A DNA stretch of 64,000 nt from Flavobacteriales bacterium (GTDB lineage Bacteria; Bacteroidota; Bacteroidia; Flavobacteriales_F; PHOS-HE28). Each line of letters begins with the position of its first letter. The first letter of the stretch is position 1. Below the pieces are notes generated by a model. It did not search any database. It was not told the origin of the DNA and saw only the letters and a program-made list of their open reading frames with translations. A program made the translations under genes and the position numbers. The DNA is taken from NCBI GenBank assembly GCA_020852835.1, contig JADZAC010000002.1:246-64245 (forward strand), in the 5' to 3' direction. Shown here piece by piece: positions 37,946 through 47,329 of the stretch.

Positions 37946-38569
37946 TCAGCCATTCGGCCACCTTCCGTTCACCTCGGTGATGAACTCGAGCACTTCATCG
38001 CGCCCCTTGCCGGTTTCCGATGAGGTAATGATCATGTGCGGCAGGGTATGCCAGGTCTTCTTCAGCTCGCGCCGGTAGAGCGCCACGTTGCTCATCATGG
38101 CGGGTTGCTTCAGTTTGTCGCTCTTGGTGAAGAGGATGACGAAGGGGATTTCTTCTCCGCCCAGCCATTGGATCATCTCCAGGTCGTTCTGCTGGGGTTC
38201 CAGGCGCACGTCCACCAGGAGGAACACACACTGCAGGTTCTCGCGCTCCCGCAGATAGGTGCGCACCATTTGCTGCCATGCTGCCCGTTCGGCCTTGCTG
38301 ATCTTGGCAAAGCCATAGCCCGGGAGGTCGGCCAGCAACCAATGGGTCCGGCTCCCCTTCAACGCTTCCACTTTGAAGTGCTCCACATTCCGCGTTCGGC
38401 CCGGTGTGGTGCTCACGCGGGCCAACCGGTGGATGCCCACCAACATGTTGACCAATGAACTCTTGCCCACGTTGCTGCGCCCGATGAAAGCGAATTCCGG
38501 CAAGTCCGGCTTGGGCCAATGCTTCGCCTCGCGGCCGCTTCCGAGGTGCTCCGCATTCAGGTTATGCAT
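37946..38569 (-). CDS. engB: ribosome biogenesis GTP-binding protein YihA/EngB
   Basis: Start MHNLNAEHLG at 38569. G1 motif GRSNVGKSS and G4 motif TKSDK. Confidence 0.88.
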   Translation of the reverse strand: MHNLNAEHLGSGREAKHWPKPDLPEFAFIGRSNVGKSSLVNMLVGIHRLARVSTTPGRTRNVEHFKVEALKGSRTHWLLADLPGYGFAKISKAERAAWQQMVRTYLRERENLQCVFLLVDVRLEPQQNDLEMIQWLGGEEIPFVILFTKSDKLKQPAMMSNVALYRRELKKTWHTLPHMIITSSETGKGRDEVLEFITEVNGRWPNG

Positions 38570-38692
38570 GCTCGGGGGTTGCTGCCATCGGATGCTTGGT
38601 GATGTTCCGGTGGGCGATCTGTAACTGGTGAACCGTGATCGATGACCGGCGCTGTTCGCTGCCCCTGGTTTCCTGCCAAGGCGAACCACGGA

Positions 38693-39454
38693 CTATCCCA
38701 GTGTTTTCGCCAACCAAACGTCCAGTATGTTGTTGAACTCGGCGGGTTGTTCCATCATGGCCGCATGGCCGCACTGGTCGATCCAATGCAGTTCACTGTG
38801 GGGGATCAGGGTGTGGAATTCCTCGGCCACGTGCGGCGGGGTAATGGTATCCTGCCTGCCCCAGATCAGGCATACGGGCATCTTCAGCTTGGGCAGCTCG
38901 GCCGCCATGTTATGGCGTATGGCGCTTTTGGCCAACGAGAGGATGCGGATCAGTTTCGCCTTGTCATTGACCGTCTCAAAGCACTCGTCCACCAGTTCAT
39001 CGGTGGCGAACTTCGGGTCATGGAAGGTTACGGCCACTTTTTTACGGATGAACTCCTTGTCTTCGCGACGCGGAAAGCCACCGCCGAACGCATTTTCATA
39101 CAGGCCGCTGCTGCCGGTGAGGGTGAGGGTGCGCACTTGGTGGGGGGGACGGCTGCAATGCACCAAGGCCACATGGCCGCCCAAGGAGTTGCCCAGCAGG
39201 TTGATCTCCCGCAGGCCCAAGTGTTGGATGAACCTCCCCAGGAAATCCGCCAATGCCTTCACGTTGGTGTTGAGCATGGGAAGGGAGTACAACGGCAGGA
39301 TGGGCATTACCACGCGGTAGTTCCGAGAAAAATGGGCGGTGGTGTCGCCAAAGTTGCTCAAGGCCCCGAACAGGCCGTGCAAAAACAGCAGCGGCGGCCC
39401 TTCGCCCACATCGATGTATCGGAACTCCCCGGCCTCCTTCAGCGTTTGCCCCAT
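38693..39454 (-). CDS. alpha/beta-fold hydrolase
   Basis: Nucleophile elbow GNSLGG. Start MGQTLKEAG at 39454 (ORF track: 39511). Confidence 0.7.
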   Translation of the reverse strand: MGQTLKEAGEFRYIDVGEGPPLLFLHGLFGALSNFGDTTAHFSRNYRVVMPILPLYSLPMLNTNVKALADFLGRFIQHLGLREINLLGNSLGGHVALVHCSRPPHQVRTLTLTGSSGLYENAFGGGFPRREDKEFIRKKVAVTFHDPKFATDELVDECFETVNDKAKLIRILSLAKSAIRHNMAAELPKLKMPVCLIWGRQDTITPPHVAEEFHTLIPHSELHWIDQCGHAAMMEQPAEFNNILDVWLAKTLG

Positions 39455-39510
39455 GCTTTTTCGTGGATGCCCAAATGTAATTGCTGCTGACAAACTCGCC
39501 GTGCCATGCA

Positions 39511-41169
39511 CTAGCGCATGAGGAGCACGTACTTGTCGTTCCGGAACAATTCATGGGGGAACCAGCGGGCCGCCAAGGGCATCCGGGCCAACTGTGCCGG
39601 TTGTGCCAGCAGGTGGGTTACGCCGTATTGCGCCAATAGCCCGCCGGTGTCCGAACGGGGTTGTTCCAGGCCTTCCAATAACAAGGCATTGTCCTGCTCG
39701 CGCTGCTTTTGGTCCAGATAGGGGTTGCCCATGGTGCTGGCCGTGGCCACCACATGCCGCGCGGTGCACAGCATGGGCCACACACTGAGGTCCAGGTCGC
39801 ACAGCACCACGCCGTTCCACGGCACTTCCCGGCGGATCACTGCGGCAGCTTGGGCACCCGGTTGGTCGGCTTGGAAGGCCAGATCGCGGTTGCGCACGGC
39901 GATCACATCGCGCCGTGTGGCGTAGGAAGGGTACTTCAGGGTGCATCCTGTTGCGATCAGCAGGAAGAAGGCCATGACCAGGTCCGCGCGCGGCACTTCC
40001 CGTTGCGGGGAATGCCGCAGTTGGACCCGGCTCCAGGCCCATTGGCACAAGGCGGTGAAGGCCAACCCGGCGAAAATGGACAGCACGGCACTGGCGTAGA
40101 AATAGAAATGGAAGGTGGGCAGCAAGGCGGGCAGGTTGATGCCCATGTGCTTGTCCAGCACACTGATCGAATAGCTGTAAATGAACAGGCATGTGGCCAA
40201 TATGAGCCAGCTGAGCAGGATGGTGCGGGCACGCCTGGGGGTCCCGAGCTTGCCGGATCGCCGCAGCATCAGCACCAACCCTGCGGTACCGAACAGCATG
40301 AACCACGTGAGGTTGTGGTGGAGGAGCACTCCGATGTGCTGCCAGGTGAGCGCATAGTAGGTGAACAGGAAGCCTTCGCGGTTGGCCACATGCATGCCGC
40401 CCATGAGCAAGCGCCAAGTGAGCGGCATGCTGGCCAGCAGAAATCCGATGGCGGCAAAGAGGCAACTGGTAAGGCATAGGCGGAGCGTGCGGTTGTCCTT
40501 GTTCCGCCGCGCTTGTACAGCCTGGATACCGGTGAGCACGCCGATCATCAGCACGGCGATCATGGCCGGGGCCGCGTGGGCCAGGAAGGTGAGCCCCGCG
40601 CCCAGGCCCGCCACCAGTGCGGGGCCTTGCCGCCCGGTGCGGAAGGCCTTGTCGATGAGCATGAGCTCCACGTAGAAGAGGCTTTGGCTGAAGGAGACCG
40701 GGATCAAGCGGTGGCTGTAAGTGGCCACGACCCACCCGGGTTCCTGGCCTACGGCCCAGAACAAGTAGGCGGCGGTGGCGGCCACGGCGCGTACCGGCCC
40801 CAGCAATTGCCGGCACATGGCAAAAAAAGCAATGGGGGCGAGCAAGTTCGCGAAGGGCCCGAGGCGCACGATGAGGTGTGCCGCCGGCAAGCCGGTAATG
40901 GCGGTCAGCAGGGCTTCCAACCAGGTGATCAGCGGCGTGTACCACATGCCGCCGCCCAAATAGGTGGGGTCTTGCCCATAGTGCCCTTCCAATAGCGCTT
41001 GCACGAAGGCTTCGTCGCGGTGCAGGTCGATCGTGGCGCCGCGTTCCAGGCCGGCAACGGCCTTCCATGCGGGGAGAAAGGCCAAGGCCAGCATGAAGAG
41101 CAGCAGGAGCACGGCCATCCAGTTGATCTGCTGGTGCGCGCGCATGGACCGGTGCCACAACATGCTCAT
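39511..41169 (-). CDS. GT-C-fold polytopic membrane glycosyltransferase (ArnT/PMT/arabinofuranosyltransferase-like), putative polyprenyl-P-sugar-dependent transferase
   Basis: 552 aa with at least 11 hydrophobic helices. Acidic DE motif (HRDEAF) in the first extracytoplasmic loop. Soluble C-terminal ~150-aa domain. First gene downstream of the DprE/UbiA genes. Confidence 0.55.
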   Translation of the reverse strand: MSMLWHRSMRAHQQINWMAVLLLLFMLALAFLPAWKAVAGLERGATIDLHRDEAFVQALLEGHYGQDPTYLGGGMWYTPLITWLEALLTAITGLPAAHLIVRLGPFANLLAPIAFFAMCRQLLGPVRAVAATAAYLFWAVGQEPGWVVATYSHRLIPVSFSQSLFYVELMLIDKAFRTGRQGPALVAGLGAGLTFLAHAAPAMIAVLMIGVLTGIQAVQARRNKDNRTLRLCLTSCLFAAIGFLLASMPLTWRLLMGGMHVANREGFLFTYYALTWQHIGVLLHHNLTWFMLFGTAGLVLMLRRSGKLGTPRRARTILLSWLILATCLFIYSYSISVLDKHMGINLPALLPTFHFYFYASAVLSIFAGLAFTALCQWAWSRVQLRHSPQREVPRADLVMAFFLLIATGCTLKYPSYATRRDVIAVRNRDLAFQADQPGAQAAAVIRREVPWNGVVLCDLDLSVWPMLCTARHVVATASTMGNPYLDQKQREQDNALLLEGLEQPRSDTGGLLAQYGVTHLLAQPAQLARMPLAARWFPHELFRNDKYVLLMR

Positions 41170-41579
41170 GGCCGGGAGGGTGTTGAGGTGCGGACATAGT
41201 CCACGGCCTCATCGCGCTCTTCCTGGTCCAGCAGCAAGGGCGTGTCGCAGATGCGCATGCACAACCGCGGGCCCAGCAGGGTGCTGCGCATCCAAATGCG
41301 GCGGTCCCAGCGCGGATCTTCCGTGCGGACCAGCCGCTCCTGCGGGTCCCAATACCAGCGGCTGTGCACCGCAGGTTGCCCCGGCGGCCCCATCAGGTCC
41401 AAAGTGCCGTCCGCATGCAGCACCATCTGCCCGGGGGTGTTGCCCACGGGCAGCAGGAGCGGGGTGGCGCGTTGATAGGTGCCGGCCAGTTCAGCGCGGC
41501 CTACCGGCGGCCAGGCCCGGTGCACGGCGAATGCTCCGAGCAAAGCCAGTGCCGCGGCCATGAACGCGAAGCGGCGCAT
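41166..41579 (-). CDS. small membrane-anchored hypothetical protein translationally coupled to the GT-C gene
   Basis: N-terminal hydrophobic anchor MRRFAFMAAALALLGAFAV. ATGA overlap with the GT-C start. The start may instead be 41609. Confidence 0.45.
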   Translation of the reverse strand: MRRFAFMAAALALLGAFAVHRAWPPVGRAELAGTYQRATPLLLPVGNTPGQMVLHADGTLDLMGPPGQPAVHSRWYWDPQERLVRTEDPRWDRRIWMRSTLLGPRLCMRICDTPLLLDQEERDEAVDYVRTSTPSRP

Positions 41580-41619
41580 GATCCCCGTACTGGTGGGTGC
41601 GGTAGCCATGGTCGTGGGC

Positions 41620-42222
41620 TCAAGCGGGGGTGCTCCGGAAGGGTTTGTAGTGTTGTTGCGCGGCCAAGGCCATCATGGGCCGATCACTGGCCGTGTCGCC
41701 GAAGGCATGAATATAGTCCACTTTGTCCATGCCGATTAGGCCGCGGATCCGGCGGACCTTCTCCTCACCCTTGCAGTTCGGGGTGGCCAGGCGCCCGGTA
41801 TAGCGGCCCTCTTCCTGTTCCAGTTCCGTGGCGATGCAACCCAAGCGGTGCAGCTGGCACCAAGGTGCGGCCCATAGCGAACAGGAAGCGGTGACGATGA
41901 ACACTTCATGGCCTTGTTGCCGTAGCCCTGTGATGTGGTCCAAGGCGCCATCGCGCAGCAACTGCGGCATACGTTCCCGGGCGAAACGCGCGGCTTGCTG
42001 CGCCAGGCCGCCCACCAGCCGTGTGCCGAAGGCCTTCCGCACCAAGGTCCGCTTCGGAGCGTCTGCCGGTGCCAGCCGCAGGCGGGCCAGGCACCACAAC
42101 GGAAGCACACCGGCCAGCAGCCACCAGGTACGGGCCTTGCCCCGGGTGAAGTACAGGAACTCCAGCATGGTATCGGCCCGGGTGAGGGTGCCGTCCAGAT
42201 CGAACAGGGCGATGGTCCTCAC
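41620..42222 (-). CDS. HAD-IB-family phosphatase
   Basis: Motif I LFDLDGTLT. Motif IV GDTASD. Proposed GTG start at 42222 overlapping the TGA of the upstream gene (GTGA). The alternative ATG at 42321 would overlap 102 nt. Confidence 0.6.
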   Translation of the reverse strand: MRTIALFDLDGTLTRADTMLEFLYFTRGKARTWWLLAGVLPLWCLARLRLAPADAPKRTLVRKAFGTRLVGGLAQQAARFARERMPQLLRDGALDHITGLRQQGHEVFIVTASCSLWAAPWCQLHRLGCIATELEQEEGRYTGRLATPNCKGEEKVRRIRGLIGMDKVDYIHAFGDTASDRPMMALAAQQHYKPFRSTPA

Positions 42223-44336
42223 AGGTTGAGCCGTTTGAAGATCCCCTCGGGGAGCAGGGTGATGAAAAGCATGATCCAGCGCCAACGGCCCAGGACATAG
42301 ACGGTGTTGCGCTTTCGGCAATAAGCGCGGAAGATGCCTTGCGCCGCCTGTTGCGCCGTGGCTGTGAGCGGGGCTGGCAGAGGCAGGCCCTCGGTCATGC
42401 GGGTGCGTACGAAGCCGGGCTTTACCGTGAGCACATGCACCCCGGAGCGGTGCAGCCGGTTGCGCAAGCCGCTGAGGTACGCCGTGAGCCCTGCTTTGGC
42501 GCTTCCATAAAAGTAGTTGCTGGCGCGGCCGCGGTCACCGGCCACCGATGAAATGCCGATGATGGTGCCGCACCCGCGTTGCTCCAGGTCGCGGGCGGCC
42601 TCTTCCAGGATGCTCACGGCTCCGGTGTAGTTCACGGCCATGGCACGCAAGCCTTCGGTCGGGTCTTCCTGTGCAGCGGCTTGGTCCGGCAGCAGGCCGA
42701 AGGCGCATACTACGATGCCGGGCCGTGGATCGAGCGCGGCATAGCAAGCTGCATGCCCTGAGGTGTCCTCGGCATCGAAAGGCACCACCACGCATTCGCC
42801 GCCGGTTTCCGCTTGGATCGCTTCGCACAGGTTCCGGCCTTGTTCGCTGTTGCGCAGGGCCAGTACCAGCGGATGGCCCCGGCGTGCAAATTCACGCGCC
42901 AGCGCGCCGGCCATGCCCGAGCCGGCGCCCAAGACCAGCACCCGCCGCGGATCGAACCCGGCGGTGGCGGGGGCAGGGCCCAGCAATCCGAGCCGTTCGG
43001 AGAGGGCCGTGCTGAACCGGCCTTGCCCGTAAACGGCGGCGATCCGCCGGAATTCTTCCAACCGCGGGTAGGTCTGCTGCAGCATGGCGGCGGACATGCG
43101 CGCGTCCTTGGCCAGGTAGATCCGGCCGCCGGCTGCGGCCACGCGCCGGTCCAGGCGGTCCAGCGCTTCCAGCGTGCCGGTGCGCAGCGGGATGTCCAAG
43201 GCCAGTGTATAGCCTTCCATGGGGAAGCTCATCGGCGAAGTGGCCGATCCGGGGCCAAACCGCTTGAGCACCGCCAAGAAGCTCACCATGCCGTGTTTGC
43301 GCAGTTCCTCCAGCACCTCGCCCATCACCCTCCGCCCGTCTTTCAACGGCACCACGAATTGGTATTGCACAAAGCCGCGCCTGCCGTAGATCTTGTTCCA
43401 TTCGCCCACGGCATCCAGCGGATGGAAGTAGGGGGCGTAGTGCACCAGCGTGTCTTTGCCGCTGCCGTCCGCCTTGAGGTGGTAGAGCAGGTTGAAGATG
43501 CGCACGGTGAATGGCGAGAGCACGAACCCCGGGAAGAAGAACGGTACCTTGACGAGGGTTTTGCCATGCGGGCGCAGCGGCTCGCGGGAGGCCTTGCCAT
43601 TCAGCTCGGAGGCTTCGGCGTGCTCGCCCAGCAGGAGCACGGAGCGGCCTTGGTGGCGGCCTTGGGCCATCAGGTCGATCCATGCCACGTTGTAGGTGCT
43701 GTGCCGGTGCTCCTCGAATTTGGCGAACAAGTCGTCCAAGTCGCGGCATTTGATGCTGCGTTGCCGGATGTAGGCCGAGGTGACGGGCCGGAGCTGGATC
43801 ACGGCCTCCAGGATGAAGCCCGTGAGGCCCATGCCGCCGCAGGTGGCCCGGAACAGGTCGGCGTGCATGGCGGGCGAGCACATCACCTGTTGGCCATCAC
43901 CGGTAAGCAGGGTGATCGAGGTTACGAATGCCGAGAAGCTGCCGTGCACGTGGTGGTTCTTGCCGTGGATGTCCCCGGCGATGGCCCCGCCGATGCTCAC
44001 CTGCCGGGTGCCGGGGGTTACCGGCAGAAAGAAGCCTTGCGGCACGATCCGCAGCAGGACTTCGTCCAGCAACAGGCCGGCGCTGCAACGCAGGGTGCAC
44101 GCGGCCTTGTCCAGCTCAAACACATCCTCCAGCCCGGCGCCGGCCATCATGCGGCGGCCCAAGGAGGCATCCCCGTAGGAGCGCCCGTTGCCGCGGGGTG
44201 CCAGGGCCGCACCCTTGGCCACGAGTTGCCGGGCATCGCGCTGCCCGCGCGGCCACCACACGGTGCCTGTTTGTTGCGGGAACAGGCCCCAGTTGCTCCA
44301 CTTGCCGTGCTCAGATCGCATAGAGGATGATGGCAA
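42219..44336 (-). CDS. fused FAD-linked oxidase (DprE1-like, N-terminal) and short-chain dehydrogenase/reductase (DprE2-like, C-terminal)
   Basis: 705 aa. The N-terminal ~440 aa carry the FAD-binding PCMH-type motif GNGRSYGD and an oxidase fold. The C-terminal ~250 aa carry a Rossmann fold (VLVLGAGSGMAG) and catalytic YGSAKAG (YxxxK). The start is 44336 or 44321. Confidence 0.7.
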   Translation of the reverse strand: MPSSSMRSEHGKWSNWGLFPQQTGTVWWPRGQRDARQLVAKGAALAPRGNGRSYGDASLGRRMMAGAGLEDVFELDKAACTLRCSAGLLLDEVLLRIVPQGFFLPVTPGTRQVSIGGAIAGDIHGKNHHVHGSFSAFVTSITLLTGDGQQVMCSPAMHADLFRATCGGMGLTGFILEAVIQLRPVTSAYIRQRSIKCRDLDDLFAKFEEHRHSTYNVAWIDLMAQGRHQGRSVLLLGEHAEASELNGKASREPLRPHGKTLVKVPFFFPGFVLSPFTVRIFNLLYHLKADGSGKDTLVHYAPYFHPLDAVGEWNKIYGRRGFVQYQFVVPLKDGRRVMGEVLEELRKHGMVSFLAVLKRFGPGSATSPMSFPMEGYTLALDIPLRTGTLEALDRLDRRVAAAGGRIYLAKDARMSAAMLQQTYPRLEEFRRIAAVYGQGRFSTALSERLGLLGPAPATAGFDPRRVLVLGAGSGMAGALAREFARRGHPLVLALRNSEQGRNLCEAIQAETGGECVVVPFDAEDTSGHAACYAALDPRPGIVVCAFGLLPDQAAAQEDPTEGLRAMAVNYTGAVSILEEAARDLEQRGCGTIIGISSVAGDRGRASNYFYGSAKAGLTAYLSGLRNRLHRSGVHVLTVKPGFVRTRMTEGLPLPAPLTATAQQAAQGIFRAYCRKRNTVYVLGRWRWIMLFITLLPEGIFKRLNL

Positions 44337-45210
44337 AGGTGAGCAGCCAGCCCAGGATGATCAAGCGGATGGGCCGGTCCTTGAAGACCAGCTTGGAGGG
44401 GTCGCCGGTGCGTTGTTCCACCAGGGTGAGCTGGAAATAGCGCATCATGCCCAGCACCACGAAGCCGCTGGTGATGTACACTTTGTCCGAGCCCAGCCTC
44501 CCGGTAACCTCGCTGCTCACGGTGTACATGATGTAGGACTGTACCACCAAGGCGGCCAGTGTGATCATGCTGGCGTCTACGAAGGGCAGGTTGTAGCCGC
44601 GCAGGCTGGGGCGCAGCTCCTTGCCGCCGCCGGATTGCACTAGGTCATCCCGCCGTTTGGCCAAGGCAAGGAACAGTGCCAGCAGGAAAGTGATCAGCTC
44701 GATCCATTCCGAAACCGGCACCCGGGCCAAGATGCCGCCGGCATGGACGCGCAACAGGAAACCGGCGGCGATGATGGCCACGTCCACGATGGGCACGTGT
44801 TTGAGCCACAAGGAGTAGAGCACGTTCATGGCCATGTAGGCCGCCAAAACCCAAGCGAAACGCGGCTCCACCAGCCATGCGCCCCACAAGGCGGCCAGCG
44901 CCAGCAGGCCACTGATCCACGGTACATGGGCCGGGTCCACTTCACCCGAGGCGATGGGGCGCAGGCGCTTCACCGGGTGCAGGCGGTCCTGCTCCATGTC
45001 GCGCAGGTCGTTGAGCAGGTATACGGCCGAGGCGGCCAGGCTGAAACAGAAGAAGCCCAGTACCGTGCGCTCCAACACGGCTTCCCGGGTGATCGCCTCA
45101 CCGAAGAACGCGGGAAAGAACACAAAGGCGTTCTTGATCCATTGCTGCACGCGGAGCATGCGCAGCAAGGTGCCGGACCTGAAGGAGCCGTGGGCGTTCT
45201 GTGATCCCAT
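44311..45210 (-). CDS. UbiA-family polyprenyl-phosphate phosphoribosyltransferase-like prenyltransferase
   Basis: Start MGSQNAHG at 45210 (cat at 45208-45210). Asp-rich motif NDLRDMEQD. 8-9 TM helices. The 457-aa ORF is a run-on into the mraZ promoter region. Confidence 0.7.
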   Translation of the reverse strand: MGSQNAHGSFRSGTLLRMLRVQQWIKNAFVFFPAFFGEAITREAVLERTVLGFFCFSLAASAVYLLNDLRDMEQDRLHPVKRLRPIASGEVDPAHVPWISGLLALAALWGAWLVEPRFAWVLAAYMAMNVLYSLWLKHVPIVDVAIIAAGFLLRVHAGGILARVPVSEWIELITFLLALFLALAKRRDDLVQSGGGKELRPSLRGYNLPFVDASMITLAALVVQSYIMYTVSSEVTGRLGSDKVYITSGFVVLGMMRYFQLTLVEQRTGDPSKLVFKDRPIRLIILGWLLTFAIILYAI

Positions 45211-45568: not shown

Positions 45569-46045
45569 ATGCTCAACCTGCTCGGCGAATTCGATGTGCG
45601 GCTGGACGCCAAGGGGCGCCTGGTGCTGCCTTCCGCGCTGAAGAAGCAGTTGGCCGGATCGCTCCCGAATGGCTTCGTGATCAACCGCGACGTGTTCCGG
45701 CCATGCCTGGTGCTCTATCCGCACCACGTGTGGGAGCAGACCAGCCGCATGCTGGGTCGGCTCAACCGGTTCGTGGAGAAGAACATGGAGTTCATTCGGC
45801 GCTTCACCTCCGGGGCCACGCACCTGGAGCTGGATGGCAGCGGCCGCCTGTTGCTGCCCAAGCCGTTGATGGACGACCCCAAGCTGGGCAAGGACCTCAA
45901 GCTCGTGTGCCTGGGCGACCGGGTGGAAGTGTGGAGCAAGGACGGTTATGCGCGGATGCGCCGCGAGAAGGTGGATCTCTCTGCCTTGGCGGAGGAAGTG
46001 ATGGGCAGCCTGGGCAATGACGACGCCCCTGGCCCCATATCATGA
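45569..46045 (+). CDS. mraZ: transcriptional regulator MraZ
   Basis: 158 aa with duplicated MraZ/SpoVT-AbrB-like halves. First gene of the dcw cluster. Confidence 0.9.
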   Translation: MLNLLGEFDVRLDAKGRLVLPSALKKQLAGSLPNGFVINRDVFRPCLVLYPHHVWEQTSRMLGRLNRFVEKNMEFIRRFTSGATHLELDGSGRLLLPKPLMDDPKLGKDLKLVCLGDRVEVWSKDGYARMRREKVDLSALAEEVMGSLGNDDAPGPIS

Positions 46046-46931: not shown

Positions 46932-47329
46932 ACAAGCGCAAGGACATACCCGCCGAAACCGCGGCCCGCCCGGCCACGGGCCGCACCTTCTCCCGCGGCC
47001 TGGTGAATGTGCTCAATGGCACCTTCCTCACCAAGGAAAAGGTGTTGGCCAACATGCCCTTCCTGCTGTTCACGGCCGGCCTGATGCTCTTCTACATCGG
47101 CTACGGATACTGGACCGAGCGCACCGTGCGCGACCTGGACCGCACCAGCAGCGAGCTCAAAGAGATGCGTTCGGAGTACATCACCGTGCGCAGCCTGCTG
47201 GAGCGCACCGAGCGCCAGAGCCAAGTGGCCGACGACATCAGCGGCATCGGCCTGCGCGAAAGCCGCGTGCCGCCCATGCGGATCACCGTTGACAAGGACC
47301 AACTGGAGGCCCTGCACTCTGCCCAATGA
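46928..47329 (+). CDS. ftsL: cell-division protein FtsL-like (single TM plus coiled coil)
   Basis: 133 aa with one TM helix (FLLFTAGLMLFYIGYGYW). Position between rsmH and ftsI. Confidence 0.7.
   Translation: MNKRKDIPAETAARPATGRTFSRGLVNVLNGTFLTKEKVLANMPFLLFTAGLMLFYIGYGYWTERTVRDLDRTSSELKEMRSEYITVRSLLERTERQSQVADDISGIGLRESRVPPMRITVDKDQLEALHSAQ

Follow-up and report, generated by a model that had tools for sequence, protein, structure and literature searches.

A DprE1-like oxidase and a DprE2-like reductase naturally fused in one polypeptide encoded in a putative pentofuranose operon of a Flavobacteriales bacterium

The fused gene and its reading frame

A 64,000-nucleotide (nt) stretch of the genome of a Flavobacteriales bacterium (GenBank assembly GCA_020852835.1, contig JADZAC010000002.1, positions 246 to 64,245 of the forward strand), here called the window and used for all positions given below, was found to carry on its minus strand a gene encoding a homologue of the flavin adenine dinucleotide (FAD)-dependent oxidase DprE1 and a homologue of the short-chain dehydrogenase/reductase (SDR) DprE2 within one polypeptide. 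The features of this gene are listed here.

42219..44321, minus strand: fused DprE1-DprE2 gene, 700 residues from the ATG at 44321, stop codon at 42219-42221
42981..44219, minus strand: DprE1-like FAD-dependent oxidase domain, residues 35-447 of the 700-residue protein, delimited by profiles, alignments and Foldseek
42954..42980, minus strand: inter-domain linker GPAPATAGF, which separates the DprE1 homology, ending in …SERLGLL, from the DprE2 homology
42222..42953, minus strand: DprE2-like SDR domain, with the glycine-rich Rossmann motif GAGSGMAG and an N-S-Y-K tetrad
42222..42284, minus strand: C-terminal hydrophobic/amphipathic tail WRWIMLFITLLPEGIFKRLNL, a conserved DprE2 C-terminus

The list of open reading frames (ORFs) contains an uninterrupted ORF of 705 aa starting from a TTG (42219..44336, minus strand), and the initial annotation had taken this as the extent of the gene. 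The ORF is there as described, but its start is probably further downstream. The TTG at 44336 falls inside the upstream UbiA-family gene, and the identical protein MCC6838603.1 ("SDR family oxidoreductase [Flavobacteriales bacterium]", from a metagenome-assembled genome (MAG); P0001 in our set) is called by NCBI as 700 aa from the ATG at 44321, which is the more likely start. Both motifs quoted in that annotation, GNGRSYGD and YGSAKAG, are in the protein, as RGNGRSYGD and FYGSAKAG. As the window DNA is about 66% G+C, long spurious ORFs are expected and the length of an ORF alone is no evidence for a gene; ORFs on the opposite strand and in other frames overlap the fused gene, for example one of 505 aa at 42813..44330 (plus strand), and are spurious.

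Domains and catalytic residues

Profile searches accounted for almost the whole protein. In the numbering of the 705-aa ORF, the NCBIfam DprE1 model NF053785 aligned between residues 40 and 451 (model positions 32-449 of 449, E = 1.2e-125) and the DprE2 model NF053786 between residues 462 and 704 (7-251 of 252, 4.1e-59), which leaves a gap of about 9 residues between the domains. Pfam disclosed FAD_binding_4 (PF01565, PCMH-type FAD-binding) at residues 39-154 (1.9e-16, 60.4 bits against a cut-off of 26.4) and adh_short at residues 465-649 (2.3e-29). Among solved structures, the N-terminal half aligned with Mycobacterium smegmatis DprE1 (4aut) up to the final residue of the latter (1.4e-84), and Foldseek superposed it on DprE1 crystal structures with template modelling (TM) scores, normalised to the target, of 0.86-0.93. 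The C-terminal half alone matched Mycobacterium tuberculosis DprE2 (21gq_C) over residues 8-252 of 254 (4e-33), and when the full-length protein was searched against the PDB, DprE2 was found at 2.6e-32 and the next SDR at 2.6e-15. The profile, PDB and Foldseek matches thus confirm that, as had been proposed for this gene, a DprE1-like oxidase and a DprE2-like SDR are naturally fused in one frame.

The N-terminal domain is about 31-33% identical to M. tuberculosis DprE1. The equivalents of His132 and Lys418 of that enzyme are kept, the segments DIHGKNHH and AKD being aligned, and H119 and K405 (700-aa numbering, as for all residues below) are invariant in the alignment of 80 fused homologues that was used both for scoring invariance and for modelling. 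The position of Cys387 is occupied by alanine ("TLALD" against "NICVD"), and this residue, A374, hardly varies among the fused proteins. Cys387 is the site of covalent benzothiazinone attachment and sets drug sensitivity, not catalysis. The C-terminal half holds the SDR motifs GAGSGMAG, NYT, SSVAG and YGSAK, and its tetrad N564, S592, Y605 and K609 is invariant across the same 80 homologues; together with the full-span DprE2 match, this substantiates the complete SDR claimed for this half.

Recurrence of the fusion

As the source is a MAG, the single frame might be an artefact produced by a sequencing or assembly frameshift or by a lost stop codon, and one MAG in the P0023 cluster does have the protein in two pieces of 274 and 250 aa (MBK7288221.1 and MBK7288220.1). 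Against this, the identical 700-aa protein is present on 20 contigs, the longest of 283 kb, and a relative of 79% identity (P0002) aligns with it from 1-700 to 1-700. Of the 120 best clusters at 90% identity, 89 are fused proteins of 665-742 aa with both domains, down to 36% identity. Uninterrupted fused ORFs were also read in six other assemblies, three of them on large contigs (L081, 4.4 Mb; L084, 2.3 Mb; L085, 720 kb) and the others in Aquirufa (L021), on a Sediminibacterium-type contig (L082) and on an actinobacterial-type metagenome contig (L083). Moreover, the linker is conserved within the clade and the structure model is confident through the junction. An artefactual origin is therefore extremely improbable, and the continuous frame noted at first stands. 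The remaining members of the P0023 cluster are all of 700 aa, and the split pair there is probably due to a frameshift or contig problem, not natural.

A HMMER search of 1.84 billion representatives at 50% identity gave 2,372 relatives at E ≤ 1e-30, with about 21 full-length fusions among the best 150. The fused architecture is a recurrent minority, roughly 1% of clusters when the fusions counted in the best 150 are set against all 2,372. Its occurrence in many database entries and clusters means that the fusion is not a one-off; it is abundant in sequence databases, though under poor names. In Mycobacterium, Corynebacterium and Streptomyces, tblastn matches that had looked full-length proved to be two adjacent genes, so that the statement that actinobacteria make DprE1 and DprE2 as separate proteins was confirmed in these relatives. 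No account of a DprE1-DprE2 fusion was found in the full-text literature searched, which leaves subscription journals mostly uncovered, so that an earlier mention is possible. The words "fused" and "fusion" are absent from the text of Kelly et al. 2024 (PMC11127046), and its supplement is likewise without fused epimerases.

Origin of the fusion

In unfused relatives DprE1 ends in "…RLGL*" and the ATG of DprE2 follows 0-12 nt on, with a direct TAA|ATG junction in, for example, a Roseivirgaceae MAG (L001, 2418-2423) and Mycobacterium helveticum (L044, 9249-9254). Of 74 sampled adjacent unfused pairs, 70 share a frame and 61 have a single stop codon between the genes, in a sample that the ranking of loci biased towards same-frame pairs, so that the proportion is not generalisable. 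Pairs of this kind, in the same frame and with a single stop, occur in several phyla, Mycobacterium included (L001-L080). One in-frame stop between the unfused genes makes fusion by stop loss easy. Most linkers measure 11 or 20 residues from the "RL" motif of DprE1 to the Rossmann glycine, and many fused linkers retain a relic Met-Lys/Asn at the former DprE2 start (e.g. QQMKKHVFLIL, SKRFMKNVLIL). On these sequence features, the fusion most likely originated when dprE1 and dprE2, abutting and in frame, lost the stop codon that parted them. Read-through of the stop codon in such unfused pairs would likewise yield a fused protein.

In a neighbour-joining tree of the DprE1 domain, which carries no support values, the fused proteins fall in large Bacteroidota clades, and single fused proteins stand beside unfused sequences of Streptomyces, Verrucomicrobia and Binatia/alphaproteobacterial type. 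Because of this scattered pattern, the distinct linker classes and the distance of one codon between the two states, several independent fusions (or fissions) probably took place.

C-terminal tail and cellular location

The hydrophobic tail had been proposed at first as a special membrane anchor of the fused protein. However, the tail WRWIMLFITLLPEGIF matches the C-terminus of stand-alone M. tuberculosis DprE2, FRYVMMVLRHIPRSIFRKL, residue for residue; in the alignment it pairs as WRWIMLFITLLPEGIFKRL with FRYVMMVLRHIPRSIFRKL, and both the PRK07102 and the DprE2 profiles reach their last positions. It is therefore an ancestral DprE2 element, not tied to the fusion. W680 and P691 within it are nearly invariant in the fused homologues, and the AlphaFold2 model folds it into two short helices (678-689 and 692-697). 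No 19-residue window reaches transmembrane hydropathy, the Kyte-Doolittle maximum being 1.47 in the whole protein and 1.15 in the tail. A membrane-spanning anchor gained with the fusion would suit the hydrophobic stretch WRWIMLFITLL and a substrate that is a membrane lipid, and yet it is very improbable in view of the shared DprE2 tail, the low hydropathy and the hydrophobic run of about 12 residues, which is interrupted by Pro and Glu. The tail may lie at the membrane surface in a peripheral, interfacial role; this would then be a property common to all DprE2 proteins.

Neither an N-terminal signal peptide nor a transmembrane segment was detected in the fused protein. This, the need for NAD(P)H and the coupling to a phosphoribosyl pyrophosphate (PRPP)-using enzyme and a HAD enzyme (see below) point to a cytoplasmic location.

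Structure model and possible channelling

AlphaFold2 modelling of the 700 residues from the 80-sequence alignment gave a mean predicted local distance difference test (pLDDT) score of 93.3, with 84-85 in the linker, and a predicted TM score (pTM) of 0.84; for a chain of two domains, the latter value indicates a defined relative orientation. The short linker and the confident single-body model are consistent with channelling of the keto intermediate between the two sites, which appears plausible on this model. The fusion would fix the 1:1 stoichiometry and the closeness of two enzymes known to form a complex when separate, DprE1 and DprE2 of M. tuberculosis being co-purified as an active complex (PMC9993113).

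The fusion may instead have no kinetic role, and this is a real possibility even if it is not the favoured one. It would then serve only co-expression, 1:1 stoichiometry and the folding stability of a poorly behaved DprE2 domain, while the keto intermediate, embedded in the membrane by its lipid tail, diffuses between the sites as in the two-protein complex. [quoted passage not shown] In addition, a single stop codon lies between the fused and unfused states. These interconvert freely on the tree and about 99% of the family clusters are unfused, which argues against a strong selective advantage. On the other hand, the fixed short linkers and the single-body model suggest a defined geometry, and the fusion persists across large Bacteroidota clades, to about 36% identity. 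PDB entries 21gq, 21gr, 21gt and 43fx (2026 copy) contain both the DprE1 and the DprE2 chains of M. tuberculosis.

Operon context

The fused gene belongs to a group of six closely spaced ORFs on the minus strand, the other five being the following.

44311..45210, minus strand: UbiA-family polyprenyl-phosphate phosphoribosyltransferase, similar to decaprenyl- and polyprenyl-phosphate phosphoribose (DPPR/PPPR) synthases, from NCBIfam and Pfam UbiA
41620..42222, minus strand: HAD-IB family phosphatase, 200 aa from a GTG (TIGR01490, 117 bits), a putative phosphoribose 5-phosphatase
41166..41609, minus strand: protein of 147 aa with one N-terminal hydrophobic segment, related to the C-terminal part of the HAD protein of L085
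39511..41169, minus strand: polytopic membrane protein of 552 aa with the C-type glycosyltransferase (GT-C) fold, from AlphaFold2 and Foldseek, a putative lipid-linked-pentofuranose transferase
38693..39511, minus strand: alpha/beta-hydrolase (Pfam Abhydrolase_1), abutting the GT-C gene, of uncertain membership in the module

The UbiA-family gene scored 230.1 bits against a cut-off of 234 with the NCBIfam decaprenyl-phosphate phosphoribosyltransferase model NF008977, and 207.0 bits against a cut-off of 207 with NF008978. Its start is uncertain (ATG at 45210 or 45159), and the ORF of 457 aa listed from 45684 is over-extended. Its TGA (44311-44313) overlaps the ATG of the fused gene (44321) by 11 nt, and the GTG of the HAD gene overlaps the stop codon of the fusion by 4 nt (GTGA), an arrangement from which the fused gene is predicted to be translationally coupled to both neighbours. 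With the GT-C gene downstream, the lipid-linked-sugar context presumed for the fusion in the initial annotation is supported.

The order UbiA, fusion, HAD, GT-C is kept in L081, L084 and L085, and L081, L083, L084 and L085 have a HAD gene after the fusion. In L082 the module lies inside a Wzx/Wzy/Wzi polysaccharide locus. The 147-aa protein had no match to any Pfam or NCBIfam family; by BLASTP it matched residues 225-313 of the 344-aa HAD protein of L085 (L085:11100-12134) with an E-value of 6e-11. HAD and transmembrane parts thus form one protein in L085 and two ORFs 10 nt apart here, due either to a real split or to an assembly frameshift.

Other arrangements of the same components were observed. 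The N-terminus of the UbiA protein of L082 (L082:6662-7999, 445 aa) matches HAD weakly (E = 1e-4), and no separate HAD gene is present there; this HAD-UbiA arrangement resembles NCBIfam PRK08238 and ORF15 of Citrobacter youngae. P0268 (799 aa) is another fusion within the same pathway, with a UbiA prenyltransferase domain at residues 37-191 followed by a DprE1-like FAD domain at residues 335-762.

The GT-C protein

The 552-aa protein gave no Pfam or NCBIfam match, and its 39 database relatives are all "hypothetical", all from Flavobacteriales and all encoded on the same contigs as the fusion. Its AlphaFold2 model (pLDDT 90.4, pTM 0.90) superposed best, by TM score, on the arabinofuranosyltransferase AftA (8if8; 0.65/0.61) and then on STT3, AglB, ArnT and PglB, with a Foldseek probability of 1.00. 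The first loop holds the invariant residues D48, R51 and D52. The GT-C protein at the syntenic position in L085 belongs to the same family (42% identical), while L081 and L084 have PMT_2-type GT-C proteins. The protein may represent an undescribed GT-C family. AftA shares with it the GT-C fold and the use of lipid-phosphate-linked donors, the sequence identity being 13-14%; as STT3, ArnT and PglB score similarly by E-value, donor and acceptor are not readable from the fold.

Proposed function

From the domain content and the gene neighbourhood, the fused gene probably encodes a single-chain polyprenyl-phospho-beta-D-ribofuranose 2'-epimerase acting at the cytoplasmic face of the membrane. In the proposed pathway, the UbiA-type phosphoribosyltransferase would attach ribose-5-phosphate, drawn from PRPP, to the lipid, and the HAD phosphatase would take off the 5-phosphate. 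The DprE1-like flavoenzyme domain would then oxidise the C2'-hydroxyl of the polyprenyl-phosphate-linked ribofuranose to a 2'-keto intermediate, which the DprE2-like SDR domain with NAD(P)H would reduce to polyprenyl-phospho-D-arabinofuranose. After flipping, the GT-C protein would pass the pentofuranose to an envelope acceptor. The fusion varies the architecture of a known two-enzyme epimerase in a known type of pathway and leaves the known chemistry unchanged.

Several points weigh against this function. The scores with the DprE1 model (420.2 bits) and with the DprE2 model NF053786 (200.2 bits) are below the curated equivalog cut-offs of 500 and 250, respectively, so that both halves are diverged relatives and the DprE1 half is outside the curated actinobacterial equivalog; the best-scoring SDR model is the generic PRK07102, which was passed (298.1 against a cut-off of 267). 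The substrate lipid and the regiochemistry of the fused enzyme are assumed. No flippase (MATE, SMR or GtrA-like) was recognised among the six operon ORFs, the search being confined to these within the window and genome, and no flippase gene adjoins the module in L081, L084 or L085. To our knowledge, D-arabinofuranose (D-Araf) glycans have not been reported from this Flavobacteriales lineage.

These model scores, together with the modest identity to M. tuberculosis DprE1, would also suit an enzyme acting on a different lipid-linked sugar or giving a product other than Araf, for instance by epimerising another carbon or a non-ribose polyprenyl-phosphate sugar; in related systems other epimerases do give xylofuranose (Xylf) (PMC11127046). 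Such an activity is unlikely. The DprE1 homology runs end to end with the catalytic residues kept, DprE2 is by far the nearest solved SDR (4e-33 with the C-terminal half; 2.6e-32 against 2.6e-15 at full length), and the coupled phosphoribosyltransferase scores at or near the decaprenyl-phosphate phosphoribosyltransferase cut-offs. Furthermore, reduction of a 2'-keto ribose can give only the ribo or the arabino product.

Comparison with known systems

The putative 2'-epimerase shares with the M. tuberculosis DprE1 (Rv3790) and DprE2 (Rv3791) pair the two folds, the gene-pair order, the end-to-end homology, the catalytic residues and the DprE2 tail. It differs in being one polypeptide with a linker of about 9 residues, in the alanine at the Cys387 position and in its divergence (about 31-33% identity with DprE1, scores under the equivalog cut-offs). 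The host is a Gram-negative Bacteroidota, and the lipid is therefore probably undecaprenyl. The phosphatase is of HAD type, not of the unrelated Rv3807c type (PMC11127046).

Three-component systems for extracytoplasmic pentofuranose glycosylation (Citrobacter youngae O1/O2) were described by Kelly et al. 2024 (PMC11127046). Their pathway runs by way of a polyprenyl phosphoribose synthase, a HAD phosphatase and a flippase to a GT-C enzyme, and DprE1/DprE2 homologues are reported for glycans to which Araf is added. An auxiliary cytoplasmic epimerase sets which pentofuranose is added, other epimerases giving Xylf, and the location of the mycobacterial epimerisation is still called debated in that work. 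By its predicted gene products, the operon found here matches the Araf version of this system. Both have a UbiA-like polyprenyl phosphoribose synthase, a HAD phosphatase (alike by family) and a GT-C protein (alike by fold). ORF15 of C. youngae joins the HAD domain to the synthase, and a single GalE-like SDR serves there as the epimerase, leading to Xylf, whereas here HAD and synthase are separate and DprE1 and DprE2 are fused, the GT-C protein is without a recognisable sequence family, and neither a MATE nor an SMR flippase is among the six operon ORFs.

Pilin glycosylation in Pseudomonas aeruginosa Pa5196/PA7 (PsPA7_6246-6249 and TfpW) likewise relies on a D-Araf pathway in a Gram-negative host, with a GT-C protein and homologues of Rv3806c, DprE1 and DprE2; there, DprE1 is cytoplasmic and interacts with DprE2 (bioRxiv 10.1101/2020.04.19.049825). 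Its DprE1 and DprE2 are separate proteins and it has a GtrA-like candidate for a hub or flippase, two points in which it differs from the operon described here; the acceptor there is known to be pilin.

Taken more broadly, it is possible, if slightly short of evenly balanced, that this Flavobacteriales lineage, and with it several Bacteroidota groups, puts D-Araf on an envelope glycan or protein by means of a single-chain epimerase metabolon and a founder GT-C family. If so, the DprE1-DprE2, UbiA-DprE1 and HAD-UbiA fusions would together constitute "Rosetta stone" evidence for one assembly producing the Araf donor at the cytoplasmic face, and would bear on the disputed location of DprE1 in mycobacteria. 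The absence of a signal peptide and the dependence on NAD(P)H offer independent comparative evidence for epimerisation at that face. The operon would extend pentofuranose side-chain glycosylation systems into the Bacteroidota, would point to Araf glycans where none are known and flags an unannotated GT-C family.

DprE1 is one of the leading drug targets in tuberculosis; DprE2 is hard to handle outside the complex. A natural single chain could be easier to express for the study of the coupled reaction and of the DprE1-DprE2 interface.

Flanking genes

The alpha/beta-hydrolase gene is not beside the module in L081, L084 and L085. Just downstream of the operon lies a gene for an EngB/YsxC-like ribosome-biogenesis GTPase (37946..38689, minus strand; MMR_HSR1, 6e-20), the N-terminus of which is probably over-extended. 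The adjacency of the operon to a division and cell-wall (dcw) cluster is not kept in L081, L084 and L085. In the window, this cluster is divergent and occupies 45569..~61460 (plus strand), with an mraZ-like gene at 45569, an rsmH-like gene at 46017, a small ftsL-like ORF, a gene for a penicillin-binding protein at 47326 and more long ORFs.

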